From a virus (lineage: Duplodnaviria > Caudoviricetes), in IMG/VR virus record IMGVR_UViG_3300033075_001536, positions 32,001 to 96,000 of that record: DNA of 64,000 nt; one strand, 5' to 3'. The translations under genes were made by a program, and so were the position numbers. Below the pieces are notes generated by a model. It did not search any database, had not been told where the DNA came from, and saw only the letters and a list, made by a program, of their open reading frames with translations. Positions 1 to 19,098 of this stretch are shown here, one piece after another (position 1 is the first letter of the stretch; each line of letters begins with the position of its first letter).

Positions 1-1479
1 CATATATCGAATAGTTTGGAATATTGGTTTAATTTCATACTCACTAAATCCATCACGATCACTTTCTACTATTTCAGAAACCTCATATAATGTGCAATCC
101 TTTGAAGTAACATTATTCCATATAAGATTAAATAAAGTTAGCTCTAGTGAATATTTATTTTGATCATCTCTATCAGAAAATATTCTCTTTTCTCCGACTT
201 TGAAATTGTCTAATTTATTTTTCCACTTGGTATCTGATATAATTTCTGGTTTACCACCACTTACTATTTTATTAAATCTTTTCTCATAATACAATTTAGA
301 TATATTTTCACGAACAAACTTTTCAAATTTTGGGTTGGTAATATAGTTGATGATGTCATTTAAGTAAAATTGGTTACATCTTAATAATAAGTTTTTATTC
401 AAAATTTCTTCATCACTATACTCTTTTAACTTTTCTCTAGTGATTTCAGATTTATCCAATAGATTCCATTTTTCTATTTCTTCTTTTGAGAATTGATTTA
501 AATCATTCGGTTTATAGGAATTTTTATTTTTAATAATTTCTTGTTTTGTCCAACCATATTTTAATAAGATAAAAACAGATGCCTTTTGCATGTCAATGGT
601 GTTTTTATTAATGAAGATACTAAGATTTAATCCATACTCAGATAGTAATTTTGATAGATTTTCTTGAGAAACACTACCATCGTTTATATTGTGTGCTGTC
701 TGAAATGGGTCACTATCCGTTCTACTTAGAGCATAGGTTATTCCTATCTTTCTATTCAGATCTTCTCTGTTCAATAAAAACAAAATAAATTGATAGCAAG
801 TTTTATCATAGACATAACTTTTAAAAGTAGCATCATTTTTAATGCACCACGCTGAATCACCAGCTAAGATTCTAATTTCCGAAGCACTATATACTCTAAC
901 TACTAAAACATCCTTTTCTTCTGAGTAATAAATAACATCTGATCCAATTTCTTTACACTTTTTTATAATATCATTTGCTTTTGCATTTGGATCAACCTTT
1001 AGAAAGTTTTTTAATCCTTCTATTAAATCTTTTCTATTTTTATAAGAGGCAATTTTTCTAAAAAATGTAGAACTATCCTTTCGTTTGGATAGTTGACTAA
1101 GTAAATCACTATCCTGTTTAGTTTTTATGAAGCTTTTTTGTAGCTTTGGAAATTCACTGTAAATATGGTGGATACTAGAGTCCAATTTTAACTTCTCTAT
1201 CTCATCAATCACCTCTTCAATAGTATCATATTTAATAAGTGGCTTAGGAAATTTATTTATTTGTGACTGGCTTTTTTGAATAACATCAAAAAATTCTATT
1301 AAGTCTTCAACACTATTATTCTTTTCATATCTAAGATGTGTGAAAAATCCAATATATCCTGGATTCTTTTTTAAAAGCTCTCTTATTTTTATGAAATCTG
1401 GATCAGTTTCAAAAATCGATTTATTTTTTAAAATAGATCTTGCCTTATTAATATCCTCAAATAATTTTATAAATTGCAT
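1..1479 (-). CDS. CTS-like-tagged hypothetical protein with G-x(3)-WCIK motif, runs off the left edge; paralog of 31106..32710
   Basis: Not in ORF track. Read manually from ATG at 1479: MQFIKLFEDINKARSILKNKSIFETDPDFIKIRELL... LAGDSAWCIK; matches MVTKFHLFENLNYARSVLRKKG...DEDFIKIREM...GSPSWCIK; AATATATA just upstream. Confidence 0.85.
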   Translation of the reverse strand, partial: MQFIKLFEDINKARSILKNKSIFETDPDFIKIRELLKKNPGYIGFFTHLRYEKNNSVEDLIEFFDVIQKSQSQINKFPKPLIKYDTIEEVIDEIEKLKLDSSIHHIYSEFPKLQKSFIKTKQDSDLLSQLSKRKDSSTFFRKIASYKNRKDLIEGLKNFLKVDPNAKANDIIKKCKEIGSDVIYYSEEKDVLVVRVYSASEIRILAGDSAWCIKNDATFKSYVYDKTCYQFILFLLNREDLNRKIGITYALSRTDSDPFQTAHNINDGSVSQENLSKLLSEYGLNLSIFINKNTIDMQKASVFILLKYGWTKQEIIKNKNSYKPNDLNQFSKEEIEKWNLLDKSEITREKLKEYSDEEILNKNLLLRCNQFYLNDIINYITNPKFEKFVRENISKLYYEKRFNKIVSGGKPEIISDTKWKNKLDNFKVGEKRIFSDRDDQNKYSLELTLFNLIWNNVTSKDCTLYEVSEIVESDRDGFSEYEIKPIFQTIRYM

Positions 1480-1500
1480 TTGAGTATATATTAAACAAAT

Positions 1501-2163
1501 TTAATCGTTAATATAAGTGAATTTTGGATTGGCTCTAAAACTAATCCCAATACAATCTGTTTTTCTACCTGGGTTGGAATAATACTGTGCTCGACCAACC
1601 ACTAATTTTTCTCCCTCAATTTCTAAGTTATTTATCACATCAGTAATTCTTTGAACTTCGGTAGAATTCCCCCTATATCTTATATCTGAGTCAATTTGTC
1701 CAGATGGGTATTCACCCTCAAATGTTGAATAGGTTCGACTCATGTGAAGATTATAATTTCCACCAACTACTTTCTTAAATCTACTAGAAACAATTCTAAC
1801 ATCATTTCCACGAATCTGATAAAATGATCCCTCTTTGAATCCAATTCTTATTTTTAGATGTAAGTTACTACTATATTCATGAAAATAAGCTGGTAAATTT
1901 GGATATTCTTCTTTAAGTCTATCATAAGCAACTTTAAATTCGTCTATTACCTTTATATTTTCTTCAAATGCTTTAAAATATTGATCTATATTTCCTTCTT
2001 CAGATGGATGTAAACTAACTTCAATAGTAATGACCCCATCTTTTTCATGGAAATATCCCAATTTTTCATCCACCATATCCTGGAATATATTTCTTATCAT
2101 GGACACCATATCCTCAGTAGATGAAGATTCCAAAAATTTTTTTATTTTATTTCTGTTTTCCAA
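1501..2163 (-). CDS. CTS-like-tagged paralog-family protein
   Basis: KIKKFLES N-terminus; IRNIFQDMVDEKLG...YDRLKEEY family motifs. Confidence 0.75.
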   Translation of the reverse strand: MENRNKIKKFLESSSTEDMVSMIRNIFQDMVDEKLGYFHEKDGVITIEVSLHPSEEGNIDQYFKAFEENIKVIDEFKVAYDRLKEEYPNLPAYFHEYSSNLHLKIRIGFKEGSFYQIRGNDVRIVSSRFKKVVGGNYNLHMSRTYSTFEGEYPSGQIDSDIRYRGNSTEVQRITDVINNLEIEGEKLVVGRAQYYSNPGRKTDCIGISFRANPKFTYIND

Positions 2164-2536
2164 AGTAAAGTGTTAAATATTTTTGTGTGAAGTAATCATC
2201 TCCATCATCTGTTGAGAATCCTCCAAATGTCCATCCATCACCAACAATTCTATCTTTTGATTCAATAGAGGTGGTCATTAATTCTGCTAGATTTTCAAAA
2301 TCTTTTTCCAACTCATCATTATCTGAATTACCATAGATAATTTTAATGGATAGAGAGAGGTATGGGGGATGTCCTTTAACATCCGATAAAGTACACTCAA
2401 CTATAATCTCTGTATATCCTAAATCTAAAATGTCTTGTAAATATTCTTCTAGATTTGGAATTTCCTTTAAAGATCTATTTGTTTTATAGTCTTTAAATGT
2501 TAATCGATTAAAATTTTCAAATAGTTTAATTTCCAT
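2147..2536 (-). CDS. CTS-like-tagged paralog-family protein
   Basis: MEIKLFENF; LEEYLQDILDLGY...DRIVGDGW. Confidence 0.75.
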   Translation of the reverse strand: MEIKLFENFNRLTFKDYKTNRSLKEIPNLEEYLQDILDLGYTEIIVECTLSDVKGHPPYLSLSIKIIYGNSDNDELEKDFENLAELMTTSIESKDRIVGDGWTFGGFSTDDGDDYFTQKYLTLYFGKQK

Positions 2537-2542
2537 TAAATC

Positions 2543-2567
2543 TATATATTAAGTATTTTAATATATA
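2543..2567. promoter_or_regulatory. Divergent pair of TAATATATA boxes (putative phage late promoters)
   Basis: tatatatta at 2543-2551 (minus strand) and taatatata at 2559-2567 (plus strand), each 4-6 nt from a start codon; recurs before about 30 genes. Confidence 0.7.
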
Positions 2568-2571
2568 AATT

Positions 2572-3018
2572 ATGTCTAAAAAAGTAGATAGGTTATCCCA
2601 AATTGTTCCAGAAGTTTTTCCCAATATGGTTCGTACCTATAATGGGTTGTTATACGATGGAAATGGAAATTTAATAACAGTCTTATCCCAATTATCATAT
2701 AAAGTTTACACCTGTCTATTAACACAAAATGCTACATCAGACCCAACAGTTGTTGTCTTAGAAAATACAATCGGTGATATAAAATGGATAAGACATTCGA
2801 GTGGTGTATATCATGCATATTTAATAGATGCTTTCCCAGAAAATAAGACTTTCTATTTTTCACAAGCTACACAAAACAACACACCTGATAACGTTTGTGT
2901 CTATATGTCTAGAGGAAATAATGATATAATATCTATATCTACTTTATGGCAAGGATCTGGTGAAATTGATGGTTGGTTATTGAACACTCCTGTTGAAATA
3001 AGGGTTTATAATACCTGA
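2572..3018 (+). CDS. Putative minor virion/tail-associated protein
   Basis: VYTCLLTQ...P..VVLENTIG.I.W.R...G.Y...TPVEIRVY beta-rich module typical of phage fibre C-termini; late box upstream. Confidence 0.5.
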   Translation: MSKKVDRLSQIVPEVFPNMVRTYNGLLYDGNGNLITVLSQLSYKVYTCLLTQNATSDPTVVVLENTIGDIKWIRHSSGVYHAYLIDAFPENKTFYFSQATQNNTPDNVCVYMSRGNNDIISISTLWQGSGEIDGWLLNTPVEIRVYNT

Positions 3019-3197
3019 GATCCCTCTTGATTTTGCTCTAATCCATTCAAATATTCTTGAACTTTGTCTTTGTGAATAATTTCATCGGACCATTTGTAAG
3101 AGGTTCCTTTTTTTCTAGCTACAATTACCTTGACCCAATCTTTGGATCCTTCTTGTGTCTTTCTACCGGTATTTGCGTTTTTTGATACTTTTGCCAT
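3006..3197 (-). CDS. DUF4295 family protein / ribosomal protein bL38-like
   Basis: MAK...KDWVKVIVARKKGTSYKWSDEIIHKDKVQEYL resembles Bacteroidota DUF4295 (MAK..K...KVI..K....G.Y...E.....V.E.L); 63 aa. Confidence 0.65.
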   Translation of the reverse strand: MAKVSKNANTGRKTQEGSKDWVKVIVARKKGTSYKWSDEIIHKDKVQEYLNGLEQNQEGSQVL

Positions 3198-3210
3198 AAT
3201 TTCTTATATA

Positions 3211-3801
3211 TTAATTTTTTTCAAACTCTTTAAAACTTTCCACATGTTGAAGTTGATATCTTTCCTTCATTCTATCAAGAACCCCATTAATTTGTGAGAG
3301 TATATTGAGTTGTTTTTTATTTAGTTGACGAAGTTCAATAAGTTTTGAAACAATAAATTTTGTCTCATTAAAATATTTTGTTCTAAATTTATCCGAAGCA
3401 GTTGGGTGATCAGATATATTTTGAAGTCTATCACACAATTTAATTAAAAGTGCACCATCCGACATATTAATCATTTTATGTAGAAGATAATTTGCTTTTC
3501 CAACTGATTTAATTTTTTTGTCCGAGGATGAAAGTTCTTGTACAATATCAGCAATTTCTTTTCCAAACTCTTTTAACAAAACTTCATAGGTCACATCATC
3601 AACATCCTCTATTGAATCATGGAGTAAAGATGCGGCTCCTAAAATTGGATTGGTATCTACTCCCTTTAAAATTTGAAAAACTTTACGAACATGTCCATCA
3701 AAATAGGACATTTTTGTGAATTTTCTATTTACACCATGATGGGCTTTAATTGCAAAGTCCCAAGCTTTCTTTTCTAAGTCTGTAATTGGTTTGACTGCCA
3801 T
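3211..3801 (-). CDS. RelA/SpoT-type HD hydrolase (small alarmone hydrolase, Mesh1-like)
   Basis: FAIKAHHG..RK...Y..H...V; AASLLHDSIED; LIKLCDRLQN. Confidence 0.9.
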   Translation of the reverse strand: MAVKPITDLEKKAWDFAIKAHHGVNRKFTKMSYFDGHVRKVFQILKGVDTNPILGAASLLHDSIEDVDDVTYEVLLKEFGKEIADIVQELSSSDKKIKSVGKANYLLHKMINMSDGALLIKLCDRLQNISDHPTASDKFRTKYFNETKFIVSKLIELRQLNKKQLNILSQINGVLDRMKERYQLQHVESFKEFEKN

Positions 3802-3805
3802 TAAC

Positions 3806-3848
3806 TATATATTTATTTAAAGATACGGAAAATTTTCTTTAATATATA
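3806..3848. promoter_or_regulatory. Divergent AATATATA boxes serving the HD hydrolase and rnpA
   Basis: tatatatt 3806-3813 and aatatata 3841-3848, each 4 nt from ATG. Confidence 0.65.
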
Positions 3849-3852
3849 AGAG

Positions 3853-4146
3853 ATGATGTCAAAAACCGAAATGGATGAACTTTTTAAATCAGGTAAGAAA
3901 TTATACTCACCTTTGATTAAATTAGTTTATTTACCAGCTGCTGAAAAAGAGATAATTATATCTGCACCAATACGGACATTTAAAAGAGCTGTAGATAGAA
4001 ATAGAATTAAAAGACTCATTAGAGAATCTATCAGAAAGATGGAAATTGGTAAATATCATCTAGCTATTATCTATATTGGAACTAAAGTGGAATCATTTGA
4101 AAATATAAAAGCTGAATTAGAAAAAATTATTCCTAGAATAAAATGA
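3853..4146 (+). CDS. rnpA: Ribonuclease P protein component (N-terminally short)
   Basis: RNR motif FKRAVDRNRIKRLIRES; LFKSGK; size 97 aa. Confidence 0.9.
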   Translation: MMSKTEMDELFKSGKKLYSPLIKLVYLPAAEKEIIISAPIRTFKRAVDRNRIKRLIRESIRKMEIGKYHLAIIYIGTKVESFENIKAELEKIIPRIK

Positions 4147-4715
4147 AATATTTGAGGAAATTTAATGAAGCAATTATGACTTCTCTTGACAAAATAAAAT
4201 CGGAAATTGATGATGTTTCTTATATTTTAGAAGATGAAAATCTCAATGTGCGCTCTTTTAGAAGGGGCTCAGAATATGTTGTTATTAATATAATAAACCC
4301 CGAATTAAACACCAATGGATTTGTAAATGCTCCAGGATATGTTCCCACCCCAACTAGATGGGATAAACGTGGATACCTCAAAAGAAGTTGGTTAAAATCA
4401 TTAGCCTTTAACGATGCTTTCGTTGAATTTATCGATCGTGTTGATGAAATTTGCAAAAAGAATGAATATGTTATTTTTGTTAATGGGTGTTCAAGTAGAT
4501 TTAAAGGGGATGATGAGATTGTAAAGTATTATAATTTTGATGAAATGTATATTGGTTCAAAAAATAGACCATTTACTCACATTGAAACTTTTATTGATGT
4601 TAAGAAAGCTATTAGAAATGAGCATAGATGGGCATATCCTGGAAAAATCGATAAAGGTATTAAATGGATAAATAAAAATATAGTTTATCCAGCAGCGGAT
4701 CTTATTGGAATTTAG
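4143..4715 (+). CDS. CTS-like-tagged paralog-family protein
   Basis: MKYLRKFNEA; EIDDVSYILEDEN...EFIDRVDEIC. Confidence 0.8.
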   Translation: MKYLRKFNEAIMTSLDKIKSEIDDVSYILEDENLNVRSFRRGSEYVVINIINPELNTNGFVNAPGYVPTPTRWDKRGYLKRSWLKSLAFNDAFVEFIDRVDEICKKNEYVIFVNGCSSRFKGDDEIVKYYNFDEMYIGSKNRPFTHIETFIDVKKAIRNEHRWAYPGKIDKGIKWINKNIVYPAADLIGI

Positions 4716-4724
4716 TTTAATGAT

Positions 4725-5040
4725 ATGATTGAAAAATATTTAAAATTTTTTGAAAAGTTAGGAGATGGTGAGTTTTATAAATTCTCTAAAACTATTAATG
4801 AGTATAGATATATTTTAGAGGATGAAGGATTTGAGGTTGAAATTATAGACTCATCGAGCTACTAACTTCAATTCGGATGAACTTTTTGAATTTATGGATA
4901 GAATCCAAGGAGATCTTCCTGATTATGAAATTGTTGCTGATCCACCACTGCCAGCTTTTGAAAACGAAATATTTGGATCTCTCTATGTAGATAGTATGAC
5001 TAATAAAAAGTATATTAATGTTTTCTTTAGAAAAAAATAG
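4725..5040 (+). pseudogene. Frameshifted paralog-family gene
   Basis: MIEKYLKFFEK...YILEDEGFEVEIIDSSSY* (stop 4863-4865); family C-half ...SDELFEFMDRIQ...FFRKK* continues in another frame to 5040. Confidence 0.75.
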
Positions 5041-5051
5041 ATATATAGATT

Positions 5052-5474
5052 ATGATTAAAAAATATTTTCAATTCTTAAAAGAGCAAGATGAATTTGTGG
5101 ATGACTCTATTAATTTAGATATTCCTAAAGAAGAGGAAAAAGAACCCAAAGAAGAAAAGTCATCTTCCAATTTTGAAGAAGTAATTTCTGGAATAAAAGA
5201 ACTTATTGAAGGAACGGTTGAGAAATCTGGTGGAGAATTTGAAACACTTAAAGATTCATTTTTAAAAGATCCAAAAGAAATTAAAATAGAAGGACTCATC
5301 AATGATTCGGATGTCTATGATTTTTATTTAAAATACAGAAATGATATTGATGAGGTTCTAGGTGATATTAATTTTTATGATGAAGTTCCTTCAGAAATGA
5401 ATACATTTGGTCTATATGAATATACCATCAAAGGCACTATGAAAGCTGTTGAGGAATTTGTTAAAAAAATGTAA
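5052..5474 (+). CDS. Acidic CTS-like-tagged hypothetical protein
   Basis: MIKKYFQFLKEQ; AGATATATA upstream. Confidence 0.75.
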   Translation: MIKKYFQFLKEQDEFVDDSINLDIPKEEEKEPKEEKSSSNFEEVISGIKELIEGTVEKSGGEFETLKDSFLKDPKEIKIEGLINDSDVYDFYLKYRNDIDEVLGDINFYDEVPSEMNTFGLYEYTIKGTMKAVEEFVKKM

Positions 5475-5477
5475 TTT

Positions 5478-5915
5478 ATGAAATATTTAACCAAATTTAA
5501 TGAATCTGATTATTTAAAGATAGGAGATGTAAAATCAACTCCAGTGGATGTTTCAAGTGATTGTAAAAAATTTTTAGATAAATATTCTAATAAGTTACGA
5601 GGGTGGAAAAATGCTCTCGAATCTATAAATAATTTATCCACCAAATACCCAACACCAACACTCGATTATAGTTTTTATATTATCAAATCATATGACTGTG
5701 AAGGAAGATATGTTACTGGAAATATTGGTTATGAAAGAGGTGTTAATAAGTCACATGCCAGACTTAGATGTGCTCTTGATCATGGATTTGAGGTATTTGC
5801 AACTGGATTTTATGATGCTGATAAAATAGATATTGATAAAGAAATATCCGGAGCTTTAAAAAATCTAAAAAATGCTCAAAGTAGAGTAGAGAATCTATAT
5901 CGACTAAAAGAATAA
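5478..5915 (+). CDS. CTS-like-tagged hypothetical protein
   Basis: MKYLTKFNES. Confidence 0.75.
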   Translation: MKYLTKFNESDYLKIGDVKSTPVDVSSDCKKFLDKYSNKLRGWKNALESINNLSTKYPTPTLDYSFYIIKSYDCEGRYVTGNIGYERGVNKSHARLRCALDHGFEVFATGFYDADKIDIDKEISGALKNLKNAQSRVENLYRLKE

Positions 5916-5916
5916 A

Positions 5917-6639
5917 CTATTTATTCAACACTTCTTTATTATAATACTCTTCAAATCCCTCCAACATATTTGAAACAGATGGTGATTTATCCAATCCGAT
6001 AATTTCATCCACTAATCCAAATTTCAAAGATTCATCAGAATTATACCAACGGTCTCTTCTTGAAAATTCAAGAACTTCATCAAATGTCTTTCCGCAATTT
6101 TTAGCTAAAATTTTAAATAAAATATAATTATACTTTTCTGCTTCCATTTGATTAATTCTGGTATCTTGGACATTTCCTTGAGTTCCATGACTTACCTGAT
6201 GTGTCATTACCTTTGAATAAACCAAGGAAGATCTTTTGCCTTTAGTTCCAGAGGATAACAATACAGATCCCATAGAAGCACACATACCGATATTGACGGT
6301 GGCTACATCCGAACTAATATAGTTCATAAGATCAACAATTCCTAGACCACACAAAACAGAACCACCTGGAGAGTTAATATAGAGAGTTATATCTTTCTTT
6401 TCCACATTATCTAAAAATAAAAGCTGCGCCTGAACAACATCTGACATATATTGATCAACAACTCCAGATACCCAAAGAATTCTATCTCTCATGAGTCGAG
6501 AAAAAATATCCATTTGTGTAACTCTCATTTCTCTTTCTTCGAGAATATAAGGTGTTAATGAGGTTTCAAATTGGTCTAATACGATTGAAGAAATTCCTTC
6601 ACTTTTTCCGAATTTTTTAAAATCTTGTCCTAAAGTCAT
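5917..6639 (-). CDS. clpP: ATP-dependent Clp protease proteolytic subunit
   Basis: LTPYILEERE..MDIFSRLMRDRI; YINSPGGSV; CASMGSVLL (catalytic Ser); MTHQ. Confidence 0.95.
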   Translation of the reverse strand: MTLGQDFKKFGKSEGISSIVLDQFETSLTPYILEEREMRVTQMDIFSRLMRDRILWVSGVVDQYMSDVVQAQLLFLDNVEKKDITLYINSPGGSVLCGLGIVDLMNYISSDVATVNIGMCASMGSVLLSSGTKGKRSSLVYSKVMTHQVSHGTQGNVQDTRINQMEAEKYNYILFKILAKNCGKTFDEVLEFSRRDRWYNSDESLKFGLVDEIIGLDKSPSVSNMLEGFEEYYNKEVLNK

Positions 6640-6677
6640 TTAATTTATTTTAAGGTGTGAATAATAATATATAATAG

Positions 6678-7166
6678 ATGCGATATATCAAAATGTTTGA
6701 ATCTTTCTCGAAAAAATTTACCGAAAGAATAAGTAATCTTGAAAAAGAGGCTATGGACGATCTAATGGATTATCTCTATGATATAAAAGACGAATTTCCA
6801 GATGTGGATATATCCAAGGACACTTGGGCGAACAATAAGTGCTTTCAAATTGAAATTAAATTTAAAGTATCTGATTTGGAAAAATTTAAAAATCTTTTTC
6901 ACGAAGGCATATTTGATAGAATAAAAGACGATCACATAGGAACCGAAATAATATATAGCGTCAGTTTAGAATGGTATAGCAATGAGTCAAATAGTTGGGG
7001 AAATTCTTTTATGTCTAGTAAGTCTATAAAATTATCAAATCCACTTGATGATTATCCAAACTATTCTATGGATATAAATTCACTATTAAATGCAATGGAT
7101 AAAAATAAAGTGATAGAGACAAAATCATCAACCCCACTTTTCAATATTCAAATACATATTATCTAA
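6678..7166 (+). CDS. CTS-like-tagged paralog-family protein
   Basis: MRYIKMFESF; DDLMDYLYDIKDEF...IFDRIKD. Confidence 0.75.
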   Translation: MRYIKMFESFSKKFTERISNLEKEAMDDLMDYLYDIKDEFPDVDISKDTWANNKCFQIEIKFKVSDLEKFKNLFHEGIFDRIKDDHIGTEIIYSVSLEWYSNESNSWGNSFMSSKSIKLSNPLDDYPNYSMDINSLLNAMDKNKVIETKSSTPLFNIQIHII

Positions 7167-7602
7167 ACCACCCAATAATTATTTGCCAAGTATCATAGTG
7201 TAGATGAAAATGGTTAATCACCAAATAAGATGAGGCAATAATTTTTACCCAAACTAGTTGTAGAGATATTAATTTTGAAATAGGTTCTGTATTAATTTTT
7301 AATTTTAGTAGATTGGATAGAATAGTATATAAAATAAGTCCCAAAAACACATACCAAGATCCAGTTAAAACACCACAGACCAACCATATAAAATCAATTA
7401 TATCAAATAGTGAATAAATACTAAAATCAGAATATTCTTGTTCACTTCTGAAATCTTCTCTAACTGGTCTTTTACCAGTAACCCTTTGGTATTTCTCAAC
7501 CCATTCTTTTACATTATAAAAGGATCCAAATTTAGAAGCAATACTAAATAAAACCAAAACGATAAGAAGTCCGATAGCATAGTAGATGTGTCCTAAAAAC
7601 AT
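7159..7602 (-). CDS. Membrane protein, about 4 TM helices
   Basis: Multiple hydrophobic segments. Confidence 0.7.
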   Translation of the reverse strand: MFLGHIYYAIGLLIVLVLFSIASKFGSFYNVKEWVEKYQRVTGKRPVREDFRSEQEYSDFSIYSLFDIIDFIWLVCGVLTGSWYVFLGLILYTILSNLLKLKINTEPISKLISLQLVWVKIIASSYLVINHFHLHYDTWQIIIGWFR

Positions 7603-7692
7603 AGATGTAATTTATAGAGATAAAACCAAATTTGTTTTAATAGAAAGAGAATTGCATTTTAATATATAATTAAAAGTTTTTAACTCTAAAAC

Positions 7693-10371
7693 ATGGTAAC
7701 TCCATTATATTCATATTTAAAAGAAAACGGCACTTCATTTTATGCTTTTCCTGGTGCATCGGAAGACATTTCAGCTTCCTATCAGAATCAAAATTATAAA
7801 ATGTATTTTTCTAAATACATTCTTTTAAATTTTCCAAAACAGCAATTAGTTCCTGGATCCACTGGATCTTGCAATCCAGTTCATTGGGATTTTGATAATA
7901 CTTCTGGGCTTGGATATGGATTCATTGAATCAAGCTCTTACACCGCACCAGCGACTTTTCAAGATGCTGTGATTGAATCGCTTAGAAATTATGTGGCTAA
8001 TCAAGAGGTTACGATTAGAGATTCTAGAATTAATAATACCGAATTTTATTATAACCCAAATGAACTTGGAACTACTGCCGAAAAAATATTTTTCAAATGG
8101 TGTAAAAAATTAGGACTTATTGACTTTGAACCGGCTATTGGTGGTGCTGTTCAATATTTTGATACACTGGATGAATTTAAAAGAAATAATGAAAATGATG
8201 ATTCTTATTTTCCAGAGTATTTATGGCAAGAAAGAAGAACAACTTCATATGATATTTCTAGTTGGTCTAATCCATCTGGTAATATTCAAGCTAATTTTAT
8301 AACCACTACCAATTTTAGAGAAGGTGATGTTATTACTATTACCGATGTTGTTAATACGGACATCACTACTGATTTGGGAACACATTCAAATGTTAGAGTG
8401 ATTTCGGTCACCACACTTCCGAGTGGAGATCAACATGTTGTTTTAGATGTTCCAGCTTCTATTTTATCTGGAACAGCTTCTGAAGGAACCGCTAAGGCAT
8501 CTTTAAATTACAATCGACTTGTTCAATATGTCGGTGAAGTAAATGGGGTGAGTAATGTAAATGAGTCTAATAAATCATATACTGAAGTTTACGCACATGT
8601 TCCAGATCATTCAGGATTAACTCCAGATATTTTATTTAGAACCATGGTGGATAGTAATTACAAACCAAACATGGTCTTCCCAATTGTCCCATCACAATAT
8701 CAACCAGAAATTATTGGGGCTGAATTATTTAATTCACCAATTGTATTAGCTCCACAAAATTATCCTGGATCTTATTTCGCACAATTCGATGTGAATGATT
8801 TTACCTATGATATTAATAATGGAGACTCAATTAGAAGAAGTGGTGACTACTTTGGAATAAATGGTGATATCAATTCTCCAATTGTAGATGGAAGAACATT
8901 AGACGGAATTTCCATAGATTTTAATACTTCTCACTATGCAAAGATGAATATTCCAAATAGGAATTTAACTAACTTTGATCAATTCAATGCTCTTGAGGTA
9001 GACAATAACCCGCCAAAAGATTTCGAATTTAATGCTATTCTTTGGTACTACACAACTATGGATCCAACAGGAACCATGTCAGAAAATCTATATGGTATAT
9101 CATTTTTGGATAATCCAAATAATAATCCAAAAGAATCTGAAGTTGGGATTGCTTTTCCAAAATTTAATAAATTGGTAGCTAATGGGTCTCAAGATGGAAC
9201 ATCTTATGCATTTGGATTAAATATCAATTTTAATATTGTTTCTGATAACCCGGTAGAAGCGTATAATCCAGAAGCTATTAACTCTTTATTTGGTATGAAC
9301 TTATTTAATGATGCGATGGAGAAACTTTCCAGTATTAATGATACATTTATACAAATGTTGGCAGATAACGCTACACTTGCTCAACAAGTTTCCGGACTAC
9401 AAAGTTTGTTGTATAGTCAAACCGATTTAAACACCATCAACCAAAGAATAAATAATCTAACCTCTTTAATTAATTTATATCAAACAAATCAAATTGTGGA
9501 TTCCGAGTCGGTTGTTGTTAATTATAACGGACAAACATCCCCACCAACTATTCAACTTAGTACGCAAGATCCAAGCTATGTTCAATTAAATTCCATAGCA
9601 ACCTCTAATATGTTTAATATAAATGGAATTATACCATACACTGTAAATGTTCCGGTAAATAAAAATTTCTTAACTTATATAACAAATGATGACCAAGTAT
9701 CATTCGATCTTCCAAATAATGATAAACTAACAATTGTGTTGGATAAGGATTTGTATTATAAGCAAAAGGCAGACTTTACCATCACTTCCTCTGACTTAGC
9801 TACGGAAAATAAAAAGTTAGATATTTATATGATGAGTATTTCGGAAGGAACATCTGTTCCAGTTGAAACGCTATTAATTGGTGATATTGATCTTCCGATA
9901 TTTTTTAATAAAAATACTCAGCAACCAAATTCAGCTAAGACTTGGAATAGTTTTGATTTTAAAATTGATTTTTCTCAAGATATAACATTAAAGTCAAATG
10001 CTATTTTACAATTAAACATTGATGCTCGATTTGATATCTTAACAAACTCAATAAAAGCAGGAGATGCTTTGGTTCTAAATAATTTATTTATTGGGACAAC
10101 TTCTGTATTTAATTTTTCTGGGCAATATGTGGTAGATTCTGTCTCAACTACTCAATCACAAATTAATTTAGATATTTCATCTAATCAAACATTCGTGAAT
10201 TATGGTGCTTCACAATCTTTGCCAATGACTCTACATGGATCATCAACTACTCTACTATCTAATCTTCCGTATATTTCTTTAAATAAAGGATATAAAATTT
10301 CTATCACTAGAATAGATTCTGATTTAGTTGCACTTTCTGATAGATATAATATTCAGATTAGTCACCTATGA
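7693..10371 (+). CDS. Large putative virion structural protein
   Basis: 892 aa, N/S/T-rich beta regions plus central coiled coil; late box upstream; clustered with other structural-like genes. Confidence 0.6.
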   Translation: MVTPLYSYLKENGTSFYAFPGASEDISASYQNQNYKMYFSKYILLNFPKQQLVPGSTGSCNPVHWDFDNTSGLGYGFIESSSYTAPATFQDAVIESLRNYVANQEVTIRDSRINNTEFYYNPNELGTTAEKIFFKWCKKLGLIDFEPAIGGAVQYFDTLDEFKRNNENDDSYFPEYLWQERRTTSYDISSWSNPSGNIQANFITTTNFREGDVITITDVVNTDITTDLGTHSNVRVISVTTLPSGDQHVVLDVPASILSGTASEGTAKASLNYNRLVQYVGEVNGVSNVNESNKSYTEVYAHVPDHSGLTPDILFRTMVDSNYKPNMVFPIVPSQYQPEIIGAELFNSPIVLAPQNYPGSYFAQFDVNDFTYDINNGDSIRRSGDYFGINGDINSPIVDGRTLDGISIDFNTSHYAKMNIPNRNLTNFDQFNALEVDNNPPKDFEFNAILWYYTTMDPTGTMSENLYGISFLDNPNNNPKESEVGIAFPKFNKLVANGSQDGTSYAFGLNINFNIVSDNPVEAYNPEAINSLFGMNLFNDAMEKLSSINDTFIQMLADNATLAQQVSGLQSLLYSQTDLNTINQRINNLTSLINLYQTNQIVDSESVVVNYNGQTSPPTIQLSTQDPSYVQLNSIATSNMFNINGIIPYTVNVPVNKNFLTYITNDDQVSFDLPNNDKLTIVLDKDLYYKQKADFTITSSDLATENKKLDIYMMSISEGTSVPVETLLIGDIDLPIFFNKNTQQPNSAKTWNSFDFKIDFSQDITLKSNAILQLNIDARFDILTNSIKAGDALVLNNLFIGTTSVFNFSGQYVVDSVSTTQSQINLDISSNQTFVNYGASQSLPMTLHGSSTTLLSNLPYISLNKGYKISITRIDSDLVALSDRYNIQISHL

Positions 10372-10742
10372 TCAGTAAATTTGATGAATATGTTTCTCCA
10401 GAAAAAATAATTTCAGAAATAAAAGAAATTTCTTATATTTTGGAAGATGAAGGATTCAATATAAATTATACAGTATCAAAAAATATTTATATAGGATATC
10501 TTTTTATAGTGATATCTAGATATCATAGAATAAATTACAAATTCCAAAAAAATCTCATGGAGTCTGAGTATTGGTTGGAATATATAGACAGATTAAAAGA
10601 AATTTTGGATAGATTTGGATTTTATCCAAGATTACCATGTTTATCGAGATTACACTTCGAAAACCGTCCCATAAATATAACTATTGTGATAGAAAAGTTT
10701 ACTCCAAGACAAAAAAGAAAAATGTTAAATAAAAACAAATGA
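10368..10742 (+). CDS. CTS-like-tagged paralog-family protein
   Basis: MISKFDEY; EIKEISYILEDEGF...EYIDRLKEILDRFGF. Confidence 0.8.
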   Translation: MISKFDEYVSPEKIISEIKEISYILEDEGFNINYTVSKNIYIGYLFIVISRYHRINYKFQKNLMESEYWLEYIDRLKEILDRFGFYPRLPCLSRLHFENRPINITIVIEKFTPRQKRKMLNKNK

Positions 10743-11092
10743 TTTGTAAATTTAACGAATTAAATCTTGAGAACGAAATAAAAGAAATATCTTATATCAT
10801 AGATGATGATTTTGGATATTTAAAAATTTCAAAAGCATATGGTAAGATATACATAACCATTTTGAACAACAGCTCTCCACCATCTAACAGCGCTTGGAAC
10901 CGGAAACCAAAAGTATCTAAATCACTAATTGATAGTGATCAGTATATTGAATTTTATGATAGGTTGAAGGAAATATTCTTTAAATTTAATTACAATTTAT
11001 ATCATCTAAAAGATCATAAGAATATTATCGTCCTTTCACCAATGACTGATATGCAAGTAAAGAGAAAATTAAAAAAGAATTCCAAATTATAG
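10739..11092 (+). CDS. CTS-like-tagged paralog-family protein (tandem with previous)
   Basis: MICKFNEL; EIKEISYIIDDDFG...EFYDRLKEIF. Confidence 0.8.
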   Translation: MICKFNELNLENEIKEISYIIDDDFGYLKISKAYGKIYITILNNSSPPSNSAWNRKPKVSKSLIDSDQYIEFYDRLKEIFFKFNYNLYHLKDHKNIIVLSPMTDMQVKRKLKKNSKL

Positions 11093-11134
11093 AATTTAGA
11101 TTTTAATATATACTAAAAATATTAAACTTAATTC

Positions 11135-12313
11135 ATGGGATGTGGAAACGATAGTCTTTTTGGTGGAACTAGCCAATTTATAAAAACAAATGCTGGTGAT
11201 TTAATTGCGGTTCTTGGATCTAATACAATTGAAAGACAAATGCTTGCTGATCTAAGAATTCCTTATAAGCAAATTTTACATTCTAGGGTTATTTTAAAAG
11301 CTGGTCAAATTAATTATCTACTTAATTTTTTAGGCATGGGTGATAATGCAACTTTTCTTTCTATGAAAGCAACCTATGATCCAAAGTCTGTAAATGAAGA
11401 GTCTAATTATATTAATTGGAGCTTTTTTGATAGCTTATCAACGGTTAATCATATGGATCAATTGATGATCTTAACTGGTAACTCTACAAACAGAATTAAG
11501 CAATTGTACCTAACAAATCCAAATTCAACCTATCCGGTCATTATAGATGTTTTGGTGGCAAGTATTGATGATACTTATTCTTATTTTCAAGATACGGTTA
11601 ATCAAACTGGAACCATGTTTACTGGATTGTCTTATACAAATATTGAAACTTATGTGGTGGATGAGTCGATTGTTATTTTTGATTCAAATTCTCCTAGAAA
11701 TGCATTAATGTATATCGTTTTGACAAATATAAATTCAATTACAAGAACATCAACTATGTTAGTCATTGAAGATGTTTCTGCTGGTATGATATATTTAACA
11801 TTTTTAACAGAATGGGATGCGATGCAGGCTCAATCTGCTTTGAATTATGTTTTGCAAAATTCTGGAGCAATACTCCCAATGACATCTGATTTGGTTCCAC
11901 CAGTAGTTTATTTATTAAATCAAGTTGGAGCATCGTCATCAGGAGCGACCTTATCTATTATTGGAACAGGAGCAACTGGTCCATATAACACATCATGGTT
12001 TGGATATACCTATTCAAGCACTATATCAACTAGCATTTTAGCCACATTTGGGGCAACCATTTCGTTAGCTGACTTTGGTGATAGTGGAACGATTACCTTA
12101 CCAAGATTGAATTCACTATTAGTTGGATCAGCATCTGATAATAGAGACGGTGATTTAACACTTTCAGACAGCAATTTTGTTTTAACAAACTATGCTGGAA
12201 ATTCGGTTGTTTCTATAATAGCTACTGGAACATACTCATTAAAGTTTGTCCTCAAAGATATTGCCGGAAATGAAATAAATTCCTTGACAAAAATTGAATT
12301 ATATATAATCTAA
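11135..12313 (+). CDS. Putative virion protein with C-terminal Ig-like (HYR/DUF5011-type) domain
   Basis: D.VPP...ASDNRDGDLT...GTYSLKFVLKDIAGN motif. Confidence 0.6.
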   Translation: MGCGNDSLFGGTSQFIKTNAGDLIAVLGSNTIERQMLADLRIPYKQILHSRVILKAGQINYLLNFLGMGDNATFLSMKATYDPKSVNEESNYINWSFFDSLSTVNHMDQLMILTGNSTNRIKQLYLTNPNSTYPVIIDVLVASIDDTYSYFQDTVNQTGTMFTGLSYTNIETYVVDESIVIFDSNSPRNALMYIVLTNINSITRTSTMLVIEDVSAGMIYLTFLTEWDAMQAQSALNYVLQNSGAILPMTSDLVPPVVYLLNQVGASSSGATLSIIGTGATGPYNTSWFGYTYSSTISTSILATFGATISLADFGDSGTITLPRLNSLLVGSASDNRDGDLTLSDSNFVLTNYAGNSVVSIIATGTYSLKFVLKDIAGNEINSLTKIELYII

Positions 12314-12708
12314 TGGCATATAATGTAAGTAATTTTTTATTATCTAAATCATCTTCTGATTATAATATTGTTATTCAAAACTCACTTGGTGAGTTAATGA
12401 CAATTAAGACATTTAATATTATTAATATTTTTAGTATTAATAACTTAGTTAAAATTAAACTAAAGGGTAATGAGGTAACAACACTTGATTTTAATACTCA
12501 AGTGGAGGCATTTACTGCTTTGCAAATTTTAAAAGAGCAATGGACAACAGCAAGAGAATTAAAACCTTATTTAATTGATAAAGAGGTTGTTAATTATGTT
12601 TCTGGTAAAACATTTTCAAATATCTCCATGACTATGTCTGTTCTATTAGCCGAGGGAGGATATTCTACACTCTATATTGAAAATGGTATTGTTATAAATA
12701 TAATATAA
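12313..12708 (+). CDS. Hypothetical protein, possibly structural
   Basis: TAATG coupling to upstream gene. Confidence 0.6.
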   Translation: MAYNVSNFLLSKSSSDYNIVIQNSLGELMTIKTFNIINIFSINNLVKIKLKGNEVTTLDFNTQVEAFTALQILKEQWTTARELKPYLIDKEVVNYVSGKTFSNISMTMSVLLAEGGYSTLYIENGIVINII

Positions 12709-12738
12709 ACAATTATTATATTTTTTATAAAATATTTA

Positions 12739-14571
12739 ATGCACATCTTAAATATAATCACTCGATGCTCAAGAACAAAAAATATTTTAAAAGTTAAAGA
12801 ATCTATTTTTAAAAATATACCAGAAAATTTTGAAATATTCTGGCACATCACATTTGATACAACCGTTCTAAAAGACATATCAGCAGAAATTCTATCTGAA
12901 TTGGAACATGATTTTATTTCTCTAAAATTTAGAAAGTCAATACCAGGTGATTATGGTCATAATTTTATAAACATATCATTGGGACAAATTTCTTCTGGAT
13001 GGATTTATATTTTAGATGATGATAATATTTTACATCCAGATTTATTAAAAACAATTTCGGAAAAAATAGAAGAATTTCCAGAAAAAAGAGGATTTATTTT
13101 TAATCAAAAAATTGGTGGGAAAGATTTTTCTGGGTTGGACATAAGAGAAGCTAAATCGGAAAATATAAAAGTTGGATCCATTGATATGGCACAATTTTTA
13201 CTACGAAGGGATTTAATAGGATTTAAACGACTAACATCAAATGAATATAAAGCAGATGGGTATTTCATAGAAGACCTTTTTCAATTCAATCAAGATGATT
13301 TTTTATTTATTGAGAAAGAATTGTGTTACTATAATTATCTACAATCTGAAAAAATGCCAATTTCATTACCAAGGGTTTTATTACTAGGTGAAGATTTTGA
13401 TTTAAAATCCAAAAAATTCTATGATTATGAAGAAGATAGAATAAATAAAAAATTTATAGAAGATAAAGATATAAATAAAGAAGTGATAAAATTTAACCCA
13501 GATGCAATTATTTCTATTGGTGATAATTATAATCAATTTACAATACTTAGTCACTCACCAACCGATATTCGAAAGAGATGGATGCATATAGGAGGTGATG
13601 TTCCAAATAAAGGAGAAATTGCCTACCAATGTGCTATGTCATATATTTTAAAAGGACAAGATCAAGAAACCCCATTAGTTTCATTCTTTACTCCGTTTTT
13701 TAACACTGGTGATAAATTATATAGAACTTATGAGTCTCTAAAAAATCAAGCCTACTCAAATTGGGAATGGGTCTTAGTAAACGACTCAACGGATGAAGGA
13801 AAGACTTTAAAAATAGCTGAACACATTGCTTCAGAAGACCCAAGAGTTAAAGTGTATGATTTTAGAGAAAAATCTGGTGGAATTGTAGGAGAAGCTAAGT
13901 ATAGAGCCGCTTCTTTATCGAGAGGTAAATATATTATGGAGTTGGATCATGATGATGTTTTAACTAATTATGCAACAGAATTAATGGTACAAGCTTTCAA
14001 AGAACATCCAGATGCTAAATTTGTTTATTCTGATTGTTCAGAAATTGATGAAAATCATAATTCACTTACTTATGGAGACGGATTTGCTTTTGGATATGGT
14101 AAATACAGAACAGAAAACTATAACGGTAGAGACTATCAAGTAGCAGCCACACAAAATATAAATCCAAAAACAATAAGACACATTGTTGGGGTTCCGAACC
14201 ATTTTAGAGCATGGGATAGGGAATTTTATCACTCTATTGGAGGACATAATAGAAGGCTAACCATTGCGGATGATTATGAGTTAATAATAAGAACATTTTT
14301 AAAAACTCGAATGGTTGGAATTAGAAAACTTTGTTACTTGCAATTTTATCACAATTCATCTACTCTAAATAACACACAAGACTCATCAAGAGCAGATATT
14401 CAAAGAAGAGTTAGGTCTATTGCACAATATTATAATATAGATATTAAAAACAGATTTGAAGAACTTGGTGTAAAAGATTGGGCATATGAATTTAGTCCAC
14501 ATTTCCCACTTTTAACCGAATCAAAATTCGGTGAAGAGGAAGGTTATGTTAATTATATTTTTAATATATAG
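12739..14571 (+). CDS. Tandem two-domain GT2 (GT-A) glycosyltransferase
   Basis: N-domain GWIYILDDDN; C-domain PLVSFFTP..N, WVLVNDS, ELDHDD, ADDYEL. Confidence 0.85.
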   Translation: MHILNIITRCSRTKNILKVKESIFKNIPENFEIFWHITFDTTVLKDISAEILSELEHDFISLKFRKSIPGDYGHNFINISLGQISSGWIYILDDDNILHPDLLKTISEKIEEFPEKRGFIFNQKIGGKDFSGLDIREAKSENIKVGSIDMAQFLLRRDLIGFKRLTSNEYKADGYFIEDLFQFNQDDFLFIEKELCYYNYLQSEKMPISLPRVLLLGEDFDLKSKKFYDYEEDRINKKFIEDKDINKEVIKFNPDAIISIGDNYNQFTILSHSPTDIRKRWMHIGGDVPNKGEIAYQCAMSYILKGQDQETPLVSFFTPFFNTGDKLYRTYESLKNQAYSNWEWVLVNDSTDEGKTLKIAEHIASEDPRVKVYDFREKSGGIVGEAKYRAASLSRGKYIMELDHDDVLTNYATELMVQAFKEHPDAKFVYSDCSEIDENHNSLTYGDGFAFGYGKYRTENYNGRDYQVAATQNINPKTIRHIVGVPNHFRAWDREFYHSIGGHNRRLTIADDYELIIRTFLKTRMVGIRKLCYLQFYHNSSTLNNTQDSSRADIQRRVRSIAQYYNIDIKNRFEELGVKDWAYEFSPHFPLLTESKFGEEEGYVNYIFNI

Positions 14572-14574
14572 TGG

Positions 14575-16212
14575 ATGGATATTTTAAGATTCAAACAGTT
14601 TGAGAAAAAACTTTCTATTTCCGAATTATCTGAACCAGCACCTTCTAATTTTAACGGAAACGGAAATAAAAGAGGTGATGTTTTGATAAAGAAAGTAGAA
14701 GATGGCGATCCTTTAATTATTGGGCCTGTTGGTAATCGAAAATCTGTTATTGTGGATGAGATTAGAGACCCAGAAGGTGTTGTATTGGATAATTTGGATG
14801 GCATGGATGGTGTAAAAGATAATGAGGATAGATACGATCCTAGCCTAGCAACTAACTTTTTTAAAAATGGAAGAGGACACTATATAAATACATTTATTGG
14901 GCAACAGGCCGATGGGACAGATTGTGAATTCACATTAAATAATATTGAAAAAACAACCGATTTCGGATCCTCTGGTCCTGGAAGAAATATAGATAAATGT
15001 GAAGTAATACAAGCTATTTTTATACATCTAAACAGAGTTAATCCACAGATAGCTTTATCTGTTAAAAACGCTGTTCAAATATTTCAACAATTTGTTTTGG
15101 ATACACCAAATTTAACCGACTTCATAAAAACTAATATGGAAATAACTCCAGATATGATTAATGATCTGGATAGTGATTGGTTATATACTTTTTCAGAAAT
15201 TCCTGGTGAGATTGAACATTTATTAAGAGATCATAAAAAGAGCCAATATGTTATTATACATAACAAGTATAATCGACCATCTCCATATAGATCAATAAAA
15301 AATAAAGTTAAGCAGTTTTTACCAGGTACAGAAATTTCAAAATTTTACCCAGGTGATTTAATTGTTGTTTCTGATCATAGACTAGTTATAGATGTTGTGA
15401 ATGGAAATAGAAATGGTGGATTTGGATATTTAATGGGTAAAATAGAAGCAACCCAAAATATAAACGAATTGATTTCTCTTTTAAATAACCTATTTAATGA
15501 AAAGGTAATGTGCTCATTGTCATTAAAGAAATTAAAAGCTGGGCTAGATTATAGTGTTATTATTAATAATGATAGTATTATTGGTAATAATATTCCAGAT
15601 CCAGTTAATTTTGAATTTAATGGGTTTGAAATAAGTAGAGTTCCGGAAAGAGGAAGGTCTTCAAAAGTTTCAACAATATCTAGATATCGTGGTGTTCCAA
15701 GGTATAGAATAATGATATTTAGAGGTGATAAGGGAGGAGATCTAAATGGTGAAGTAGAAGGATCAACTTCTAGACATGGTAAAATATCTTTACAGATTAT
15801 AAATAAGATAATTAGAAGACACTTTCAAGACTTTGGATTACAAACGCAAGATTTTGAATTTGTTAGAAGGAGAGTTGTTTTAAATGATTTAAATAATAAT
15901 CAATTATTAAATCAAATAAACTCTCTTATTGGTGATGTTGCAGAGCTTGTAAATCATGGATTTAATATAGATAGAAATTTATCTGGAAGAGATGATATAT
16001 CTAATAACAGAGATGGACTAATTTCTAAATTACAGTCTTTGGAAATGATTAAATTATTAGCAGATATATCAATGGAAAACAATGAGTGTTTTGATTTAAT
16101 TATTAATGATATTTTTAAATATGCGATGTCAATACAAGTTTGGCATGATCAGAACACCCCACCAAATCGCCAAGGAAATTTATTAACTCCTAAATATTTT
16201 AGGACAGTTTAA
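14575..16212 (+). CDS. CTS-like-tagged large hypothetical protein
   Basis: MDILRFKQFEK; TAATATATA 4 nt before ATG; no recognised domain. Confidence 0.75.
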   Translation: MDILRFKQFEKKLSISELSEPAPSNFNGNGNKRGDVLIKKVEDGDPLIIGPVGNRKSVIVDEIRDPEGVVLDNLDGMDGVKDNEDRYDPSLATNFFKNGRGHYINTFIGQQADGTDCEFTLNNIEKTTDFGSSGPGRNIDKCEVIQAIFIHLNRVNPQIALSVKNAVQIFQQFVLDTPNLTDFIKTNMEITPDMINDLDSDWLYTFSEIPGEIEHLLRDHKKSQYVIIHNKYNRPSPYRSIKNKVKQFLPGTEISKFYPGDLIVVSDHRLVIDVVNGNRNGGFGYLMGKIEATQNINELISLLNNLFNEKVMCSLSLKKLKAGLDYSVIINNDSIIGNNIPDPVNFEFNGFEISRVPERGRSSKVSTISRYRGVPRYRIMIFRGDKGGDLNGEVEGSTSRHGKISLQIINKIIRRHFQDFGLQTQDFEFVRRRVVLNDLNNNQLLNQINSLIGDVAELVNHGFNIDRNLSGRDDISNNRDGLISKLQSLEMIKLLADISMENNECFDLIINDIFKYAMSIQVWHDQNTPPNRQGNLLTPKYFRTV

Positions 16213-16664
16213 AGATTTCTATCTCTATTTATCTGTTCAGACCTCACAATAGCAGTGTGTCCATAATATCCATTATGACAGTTATAAGCAGTAAATTGCA
16301 ATAATCCTTCAGATGTTTCTATGTTTACAAACATAGTTTCTCTTTCTTCAGGACCATCAGTTATCTCATCTAATCTACTAACATTTAAACACTCATCTAC
16401 AATTTTAACACCTATTAATTTTGACCCTATAAAAGATTTATATTCATCATTGGTGAAAAAATATCCAAATTTTTCACAACAGTTTTGATCATTTTCAATC
16501 AAAAGATATATGGTTTGTTTATTGGTGTGAATAGCAAATCCATCATAAGAAGACATACTACCTCTCAAATCTATCTCATCTCTTCCAAACAGCTCCTCTA
16601 TTTCTTCAATAATTTCATCAGAAGAGTTCTCAAATAGTTTAAATTTCTTGATAATTTTAGACAT
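16209..16664 (-). CDS. CTS-like-tagged phage protein with NGYYG motif
   Basis: MSKIIKKFKLFEN; IETSEGLLQFTAYNCHNGYYGH. Confidence 0.7.
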   Translation of the reverse strand: MSKIIKKFKLFENSSDEIIEEIEELFGRDEIDLRGSMSSYDGFAIHTNKQTIYLLIENDQNCCEKFGYFFTNDEYKSFIGSKLIGVKIVDECLNVSRLDEITDGPEERETMFVNIETSEGLLQFTAYNCHNGYYGHTAIVRSEQINRDRNL

Positions 16665-16696
16665 AAACTATATATAAAAATATTTATATAATATTA

Positions 16697-17665: not shown

Positions 17666-17670
17666 TAAAT

Positions 17671-17901
17671 ATGGAACATTATATCGCTTTTTATATAACA
17701 TTTATATTTTTTACATTTATTATTTTATTTGATTTATCACCAATTAATATTGTAAAATTTATTTGTAGAGATAAAAATACCACTTTTGGCATTTTGACTT
17801 TTGGTATCCATCAGTATAGAAAATATAAAGAGAAGAAACTTTCTGAAAGAAACACTTTACAATATATTAGGAATAAAAAATTAGAAAAAATTTTAAAATG
17901 A
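17671..17901 (+). CDS. Small membrane-anchored protein with C-terminal tag
   Basis: N-terminal TM helix; ends IRNKKLEKILK. Confidence 0.65.
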   Translation: MEHYIAFYITFIFFTFIILFDLSPINIVKFICRDKNTTFGILTFGIHQYRKYKEKKLSERNTLQYIRNKKLEKILK

Positions 17902-19097: not shown

Positions 19098-19098
19098 G

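Follow-up and report, generated by a model that had tools for sequence, protein, structure and literature searches.

We describe here a gene for a homologue of the large-subunit ribosomal protein bL38 in a huge T4-like phage. The gene lies in a 64,000-nucleotide stretch of viral DNA (the window), corresponding to bases 32001-96000 of IMG/VR virus record IMGVR_UViG_3300033075_001536, which comprises 170,678 bp and is 78% complete as judged by CheckV. The open reading frame (ORF), at positions 3006-3197 on the minus strand, begins with ATG and encodes 63 amino acids (aa); its coordinates and residues are exactly those reported in an initial annotation of the window. Ribosomal proteins encoded by viruses are a recognised class, but a small one, believed to include only proteins that bind loosely and can be exchanged, bS21 and bL12 among them. 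To this class bL38 adds a member that is phylum-specific and acts in assembly. The case is that of a cellular ribosomal protein with a homologue inside a bona fide viral genome, at a locus that is syntenic in related phage contigs. We consider it rather probable, from sequence comparison and structural modelling, that the phage gene encodes a functional, virus-adapted bL38 which aids assembly of the host 50S subunit through the ribosomal protein uL6.

Identity, fold and likely partner of the phage protein

The ribosomal protein bL38 was discovered in 2020, and the paper reporting it equates it with the family DUF4295 (UniProt A5F9Y9, pfam 14128, Fjoh_4981, encoded downstream of rpmB and rpmG; PMC7797042), in agreement with the initial annotation. 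A 2018 preprint had predicted DUF4295 to be ribosome-associated on the basis of operon context alone. In Pfam the window protein yielded one match, to DUF4295 (PF14128; 25.8 bits, E 9.3e-6, profile positions 9-47 of 47), and the same family is matched by eight of the nine phage-context copies, with E values of up to 0.01. Searching a 5.8-billion-protein database recovered 18 homologues (E 7e-27 to 3.5e-3), nearly all of them already annotated as PF14128. They align collinearly with the window protein, from the initial Met as far as the helix, with 20 invariant positions, namely the start MAKVSKN together with R12, G17, S18, D20, V22, V24, K29, Y34, H42, K43, D44, V46 and L50.

Among these homologues are copies that sit in bacterial ribosomal operons. 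P0007, with 63% identity, comes from a bacterial contig of 88 kb, where it is part of a bL28-bL33-DUF4295-ftsY operon; the L010 copy, with 58% identity (BLASTP E 1e-21), belongs to an mnmE-bL28-bL33-bL38 operon. A profile made from the alignment of the window protein and its homologues (A1) matched two solved bL38 chains, those of Porphyromonas gingivalis (9i5t_15, E 7.3e-7) and Flavobacterium johnsoniae (7jil_4, '50S ribosomal protein L38', E 2.6e-5). A single-sequence phmmer search of the PDB found no bL38, the profile search alone succeeding, and PHROGs and NCBIfam gave no family for the protein. The F. johnsoniae protein has a mass of ~5.6 kDa and a pI of ~10.5. The small size and basic character of the family are present in the phage protein too: by direct count it contains 12 Lys/Arg and 8 Asp/Glu, residues 1-50 having a net charge of +6 and the added tail one of -2. 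By these comparisons the phage protein is a genuine DUF4295/bL38 homologue.

The AlphaFold2 model, built on the alignment, predicts β-strands at residues 21-30 and 33-42 followed by an α-helix at 43-59. Its core has predicted local distance difference test (pLDDT) values of 82-86, while the N-terminal tail is of low confidence. The arrangement is the same as the β-hairpin plus helix described for bL38 (PMC11851116). Superposition on the P. gingivalis chains 9i5v_15 and 9i5t_15 gave 1.6 Å over 32-33 residues, and on 7jil_4 2.1 Å over 34 residues, with Z values of 2.2-2.7. A Foldseek search of the PDB returned nothing at E values up to 0.001; for so small a fold, neither these Z values nor Foldseek E values above 1 discriminate by themselves. 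The superpositions are consistent with homology but do not constitute independent proof of it. The initial annotation would have given up its assignment for want of a significant DUF4295 match and of structural similarity to bL38, and the present results do not refute it.

Three regions may be distinguished in the phage protein. Residues 1-20 form a basic N-terminal tail whose start, MAKVSKNA, is that of Chitinophagales bL38. The β-hairpin that follows (residues 21-30 and 33-42) has a loop two residues shorter than in bacterial copies, and from about residue 51 the C-terminus continues as a polar/acidic extension with no counterpart in bacterial copies. The loop is shorter by about two residues in every phage-context copy, and a polar or acidic C-terminal extension is present in most. 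The short loop and extra tail offer a natural variant with which the mechanism of bL38 might be probed.

The function of the family in bacteria was established in 2025, bL38 proving essential or nearly so in both species tested. On the ribosome, bL38 adds two strands to the β-sheet of the uL6 C-terminal domain, burying ~40% of its own surface (PMC11851116), and contacts H95 (the sarcin-ricin loop) and H97 at the ribosome periphery (PMC11851116; PMC12123416). Depletion of bL38 causes 50S assembly to stall, with particles that lack uL6, and overproduction of uL6 bypasses the need for bL38 (PMC11851116). Purified F. johnsoniae uL6 is labile and is stabilised off the ribosome by bL38; the authors proposed a cytoplasmic uL6-bL38 heterodimer in which bL38 has a chaperone-like role and possibly protects against proteases (PMC11851116). 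In P. gingivalis the bL38 gene is essential, deletion being impossible unless a plasmid copy is present (PMC12123416).

Binding of the phage protein to uL6 was assessed by docking, pairing the phage protein (alignment A1) with the uL6 (alignment A2) of the Chitinophagales genome that holds locus L012. This uL6 was used since none was detectable in the incomplete metagenome-assembled genome (MAG) of the nearest bacterial copy, L010. The result gives weak support for the pairing: the score was 0.59, against 0.02 for the best control, the runs agreed on at least 91% of contacts, and the pLDDT of the partner was at least 63. For comparison, of 80 solved complexes 58 attain the mark applied, as do 2 of 110 mismatched pairs; the range up to 0.60 contains 7 of the 80 as well as both mismatches.

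Phage setting, conservation and host

The record contains a fragment of a T4-type capsid gene, an Rnl1-type RNA ligase gene (phrog_562, E 8e-65), a RecA/UvsX-like gene and a B-family DNA polymerase gene, so that the description of the ORF as phage-encoded holds. A phage exonuclease and one tRNA are also encoded, and the GC content is 27-33% throughout. The source is a huge T4-like phage, and the bL38-like gene lies well within the record. Most of the structural module is apparently missing from the record, the gp23-type gene being truncated at its end; a search of the record for portal families found no match, and neither did the control for that search. Genes for uL6 and bS21 were not found in the record, which, at 78% completeness, may differ in this from the whole phage. 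The features discussed are the following.

3006..3197, minus strand: bL38-like gene (rpmL homologue); ORF, PF14128 at 25.8 bits, homologues, AlphaFold2 model
3204..3213, minus strand: upstream box TAATATATAA; sequence, enrichment in the window and genome-wide
3211..3801, minus strand: SpoT/Mesh1-like HD_4 hydrolase, candidate (p)ppGpp hydrolase; PF13328 E 2.3e-12, TIGR00691 E 1.1e-11, phrog_990 E 3.6e-22
3853..4146, plus strand: RNase P protein component RnpA, divergent, with its own box; PF00825 E 2.1e-13, TIGR00188 at 41.8 bits (cut-off 38.35)
5917-6639, minus strand: ClpP protease; PF00574 E 1.8e-52
29094-30992, minus strand: full-length Hsp70/DnaK; PF00012 E 3e-256, phrog_22485 E 3.5e-249
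G000:C1:170445-170678 (outside the window), minus strand: T4 gp23-type major capsid gene, a gene fragment cut by the record end

The bL38-like gene is flanked by the HD_4 hydrolase gene and by a convergent ORFan, with no bL28 or bL33 gene adjoining. The convergent ORF (2572-3018, plus strand, 148 aa) is without a family match and overlaps the 3' end of the bL38-like gene by 13 bp (3006-3018). Part of a 359-aa protein (3728-4807) of contig L090 is homologous to it; this contig also has a bL38-like gene, P0021, and the same gene adjoins its bL38-like ORF. A terminator scan found none near the bL38-like gene of the window. The phage ClpP gene lies 2.7 kb from this gene for a putative stabiliser of labile uL6. 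Several neighbouring ORFs (at 1479, 2536, 4143 and 6678) bear an N-terminal motif of the type MxxIKxFE. This is absent from the bL38-like protein, which has a bL38-type start, so that its synthesis within the cell, rather than delivery with the virion, would be expected.

The closest homologues of the window protein, P0001-P0005 (72-95% identity), come from other metagenome samples, on contigs of 11-16 kb, and none of them is encoded in a ribosomal operon. In each the gene comes directly after an HD_4 hydrolase gene, with RNase P protein and RNA ligase genes nearby. The order HD_4 then DUF4295 is seen in L002, L003, L005, L006 and L007, and the HD_4-bL38 pair was present in every related phage contig read, with an Rnl1-type RNA ligase gene a few kb away; RnpA is also kept near the bL38-like gene in L002 and L005-L007. 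Three of these contigs (L002, L005 and L006) have many genes in common with the present phage, at 47-80% protein identity. The HD_4 genes of the relatives are located at 5398-6186 in L002, 5566-6333 in L005, 7416-8183 in L006 and 3588-4355 in L007.

Ratios of nonsynonymous to synonymous substitution (dN/dS) among the window, L002 and L005 copies are 0.12, 0.15 and 0.23, values that are rough since synonymous divergence (dS), at ~1.0-1.4, is near saturation. For comparison, bacterial copies give 0.09-0.19. Judged by these ratios, the phage bL38 copies are kept under purifying selection.

An exhaustive profile search of 1.84 billion cluster representatives identified 148 members of the family, several of them with the short loop of the phage copies. 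Five (P0021, P0076, P0044, P0062 and P0075) lie apart from any bL28-bL33 operon; their AT-rich contigs are densely packed with small genes that lack annotation. The more distant of the phage-context copies are quite divergent, with 33-51% identity. The contig of P0075, L099, has a match to PHROG 1745, 'DNA transfer protein' (E 2.7e-139), which marks it as a phage of a different kind. The phage type with the short-loop gene P0075 is represented by L099 5367-6947 and 8001-8757 and by L100 1188-3792. The P0075 contig also has DHFR and metallophosphoesterase genes, and a HAD/polynucleotide-kinase-like gene directly after the bL38-like gene. A further copy with a short loop, P0060, was considered as a phage copy and dropped: it lies on a short contig of 60% GC, and the ORF upstream of it ends in ...HREIK, like bL33, so that it was read as part of a bacterial bL33-bL38 operon.

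In a careful maximum-likelihood tree, whose resolution is limited by its 56 columns, the six copies of the window type form a clade (support 99/91), as do these six together with P0021 and P0076 (99/93). All eight members of the larger clade have the two-residue loop deletion. A topology holding all 11 phage-context copies together was not rejected (approximately unbiased test, p-AU 0.117), while the tree as found needs three label changes. A single capture of bL38 by phages is therefore possible.

The initial annotation had taken the protein as a pointer to a Bacteroidota host, and this can be sharpened. The best 80 matching loci among GTDB species genomes are all from Bacteroidota, the top ones being MAGs of freshwater-lake Chitinophagales, Chitinophagaceae and Saprospirales. 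According to the literature, the bL38 family is confined to Bacteroidia and Rhodothermia. The start MAKVSKNA(K/R)T(N/D)R is common to phage and Chitinophagales-type copies, whereas bL38 of the Flavobacteriia type starts MAKK(A)V.... In a quick tree the sister group of the phage clade consisted of P0019 and L010, the latter a Chitinophagales copy from Lake Mendota, with a Shimodaira-Hasegawa-like approximate likelihood ratio (SH-aLRT) support of 86, but the same node is weak in the careful tree (44/75). The candidate-host bacterial loci that were read have 31-34% GC and are AT-rich like the phage. From this single gene, the host is probably a member of the Bacteroidota, of a low-GC freshwater Chitinophagales lineage, and the bL38-like gene may serve as a practical host marker for this uncultured huge phage and its relatives. 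On the bacterial contig of P0007 (L008), a gene at 2368-3849 with the tail-fibre-related domains PF26696 (PTL_trimer) and PF05268 (GP38) lies ~0.7 kb upstream of the bL28-bL33-bL38 operon.

A recurrent box upstream of phage genes

On the minus strand, the sequence upstream of the bL38 ATG is TTAATATATAAGAAATT. The box within it, TAATATATAA, overlaps the TAA that terminates the HD gene, and the ATATATA at its core ends 7 nucleotides before the bL38 ATG. Such boxes are recurrent: of the 82 upstream regions in the window, 26 contain AATATATA, where 0.8 would be expected, and in the whole record ATATATA ends 4-9 nucleotides before the ATG in 71 of 227 genes, most often at 4-5 nucleotides. Besides the site at 3204-3213 (minus strand), (T)TAATATATAA is found upstream of the genes at 3853, 2572, 6678, 7693, 25831 and 28280 on the plus strand and at 27233, 31106 and 36642 on the minus strand.

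The initial annotation had referred to a 'late box' at this position. The presence of a recurrent box is borne out, but its designation as late is not. The element resembles the T4 late promoter TATAAATA yet differs from it, and that canonical sequence shows no enrichment here (22 seen, 18.5 expected). The HD hydrolase, bL38-like and RnpA genes each have a box at the 4-9 nucleotide spacing, whereas polB, the UvsX-like gene, DnaK, ClpP, RnlA and the 1825-aa gene lack one at that distance. That the box is missing before replication and recombination genes accords with a temporal class of their own for the genes that have it. The spacing is not kept before the bL38-like gene in relatives, L002 having a variant, L005 no box and L090 a box further upstream.

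The box may be a promoter-like or an initiation-region-like element. If it acts as a -10-like promoter element, the mRNAs of the genes that it precedes would be leaderless or nearly so. Bacteroidota ribosomes ignore Shine-Dalgarno sequences, and leaderless mRNAs would accordingly suit a host from that phylum.

Proposed role and relation to known systems

The role proposed here may be outlined as follows. An ancestor of the phage lineage would have captured the bL38 gene from a Chitinophagales-like host. The phage bL38, made inside the infected cell and not packaged, would use its hairpin to add two strands to the sheet of the uL6 C-terminal domain, thereby stabilising labile uL6, and would bring uL6 into nascent 50S subunits beside H95 and H97. 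With its own supply of bL38, the phage could sustain the production and upkeep of 50S subunits when host expression is shut down or uL6 is subject to proteolysis. The adjoining alarmone-hydrolase-like gene and the RNase P protein gene would be in keeping with such a purpose. The grouping of HD hydrolase, bL38 and RnpA fits, by neighbourhood only, a small translation-support cluster, and the HD hydrolase and bL38 may cooperate, for instance through alarmone removal alongside ribosome production.

Since the core strands, helix and tail are conserved under selection, the same job on host uL6 is the most probable one for the phage protein. The initial annotation had envisaged remodelling of host 50S subunits; given the published role of bL38 in stabilising uL6 and in its entry into nascent 50S particles, support of assembly is better grounded than remodelling of finished subunits. 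Several observations weigh against the proposed role. The PF14128 score falls 1.2 bits short of the gathering cut-off of 27 bits, although that value is a curation threshold rather than a biological feature, and the shortfall fits the loop deletion. The statistics of structure searches do not discriminate for a fold of ~40 residues, and the weak docking score may reflect likeness to the solved 7JIL complex rather than binding. The shorter hairpin loop and the C-terminal tail could alter or redirect function. Finally, with no uL6 gene in its record, the phage depends on the host for the partner protein.

The same loop and tail could instead belong to a specialised ribosome, in which the phage form replaces host bL38 on the 50S subunit and, through its position near the sarcin-ricin loop, alters factor binding or sensitivity to defence systems or toxins in favour of phage translation. 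The two features are clade-specific, bL38 is peripheral and touches H95 and H97, and ribosomal proteins of viruses are believed to take the place of their cellular counterparts (PMC6375957). We nevertheless give this a small chance only, since the length and sequence of the tail vary among close relatives, suggesting weak constraint, and bL38 is known for a part in assembly, with nothing to indicate exchange on mature ribosomes. A role in shutting off the host, with the phage protein as a decoy that sequesters uL6 from the 50S subunit and so blocks new host ribosomes, would accord with the weakly predicted uL6 binding and with a loop and tail unlike those of host copies. It is very unlikely: the phage needs ribosomes and carries RnpA, RNA ligase and tRNA genes as translation support, and its bL38 matches bacterial copies in how well the core and N-terminal tail are conserved, dN/dS being similar too.

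Two further explanations would take the protein off the ribosome or deprive it of a function. The captured bL38 scaffold might now bind RNA of the phage or a different protein, whether of phage or host, as the location of the gene outside any ribosomal operon and beside RNA-related genes, and the divergence of the distant phage-context copies, could suggest. Yet the window protein has high full-length identity to host bL38, including the tail that is unresolved in ribosome structures, which would be unexpected after a change of target, and we regard this as quite unlikely. Last, the gene could be a functionless passenger, whether host DNA joined in error during assembly or a recent capture awaiting loss. 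The similar base composition of candidate hosts means that composition cannot discriminate here, but the same gene and phage neighbourhood recur in independent metagenome assemblies from other samples, the dS of ~1 with dN/dS of 0.12-0.23 bespeaks long retention under selection, the box upstream of the gene is the phage's own, and neither bL28 nor bL33 adjoins the gene. Contamination and misassembly were rejected on the grounds of this synteny and these ratios, and the passenger explanation as a whole is highly improbable.

The proposed role in 50S assembly admits a bolder form, to which we would attach a modest chance: that a virus-specific bL38 lineage, with short loop and acidic tail, is present in at least two unrelated phage types (the T4-like huge phage and the T5-type DNA-transfer contig) and acts as a viral ribosome-assembly chaperone that takes over uL6 insertion, possibly shielding uL6 from proteolysis, and yields phage-conditioned 50S subunits. 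If true, this would be the first virus to intervene in bacterial ribosome assembly rather than to swap an exchangeable surface protein. More generally, the phage gene suggests that the supply of uL6/bL38 may be a bottleneck in infection of Bacteroidota.

The statement of the initial annotation that the phage ribosomal proteins usually cited are of the bS21 and bL12 types agrees with a survey of 2019, which predates bL38: it lists 14 virus-encoded ribosomal proteins, including bS21, bL12, bS1, bL9, bL31 and bL33 but not bL38 (Mizuno et al. 2019, PMC6375957). A full-text literature search that combined phage with bL38 or DUF4295 turned up no account of a copy in a virus. Among GenBank phages (INPHARED, 50,697 records), tblastn with the window protein, the Flavobacteriia-type P0074 and P0021 found nothing, and neither did megablast with positions 1-20000 of the window. 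Pattern scans of IMG/VR (from A1 and from the phage-context alignment A3) recovered no other viral copy, although with few peptide patterns absence is not proven. With a selected phage copy of bL38, the range of ribosomal proteins that viruses encode would come to include a phylum-specific assembly protein.

Comparison with bacterial bL38, as seen in F. johnsoniae (Fjoh_4981, 7JIL chain 4) and P. gingivalis (9I5T/9I5V chain 15), reveals the same build, small and basic, in which a disordered N-terminal tail is followed by a hairpin and a C-terminal helix. The operon copies of Chitinophagales are closest, with 58-63% identity, the same MAKVSKNA start and the HKDKV motif. In contrast, the phage copy is 63 rather than 50-58 aa long, owing to a polar/acidic extension of ~8-13 residues, and its loop is two residues shorter. 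It is not downstream of rpmB-rpmG and has its own phage-type upstream box. A place in that operon is typical of cellular copies but no defining trait of the family; the location outside it is a difference to be expected of a virus-borne copy and marks the copy as phage-borne. With other virus-encoded ribosomal proteins (PMC6375957), such as phage bS21 (PMC9723584), the bL38 homologue shares its derivation from a captured cellular gene, purifying selection, small size, a place at the ribosome surface and occurrence in aquatic, uncultured phages. It differs from them in that bL38 is phylum-restricted and a helper in the assembly and stabilisation of uL6, rather than a freely exchanging surface protein. 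Huge phages are also known to carry genes that support translation, among them tRNAs, RNA ligase, RNase P components and alarmone hydrolases. The clustering of the bL38-like gene with genes for a SpoT-like HD hydrolase and RnpA, in a genome that also encodes an Rnl1-type ligase, a tRNA, DnaK and ClpP, is in keeping with that pattern; but whereas those genes act on RNA, nucleotides and protein folding, bL38 is a structural and assembly component of the ribosome itself.

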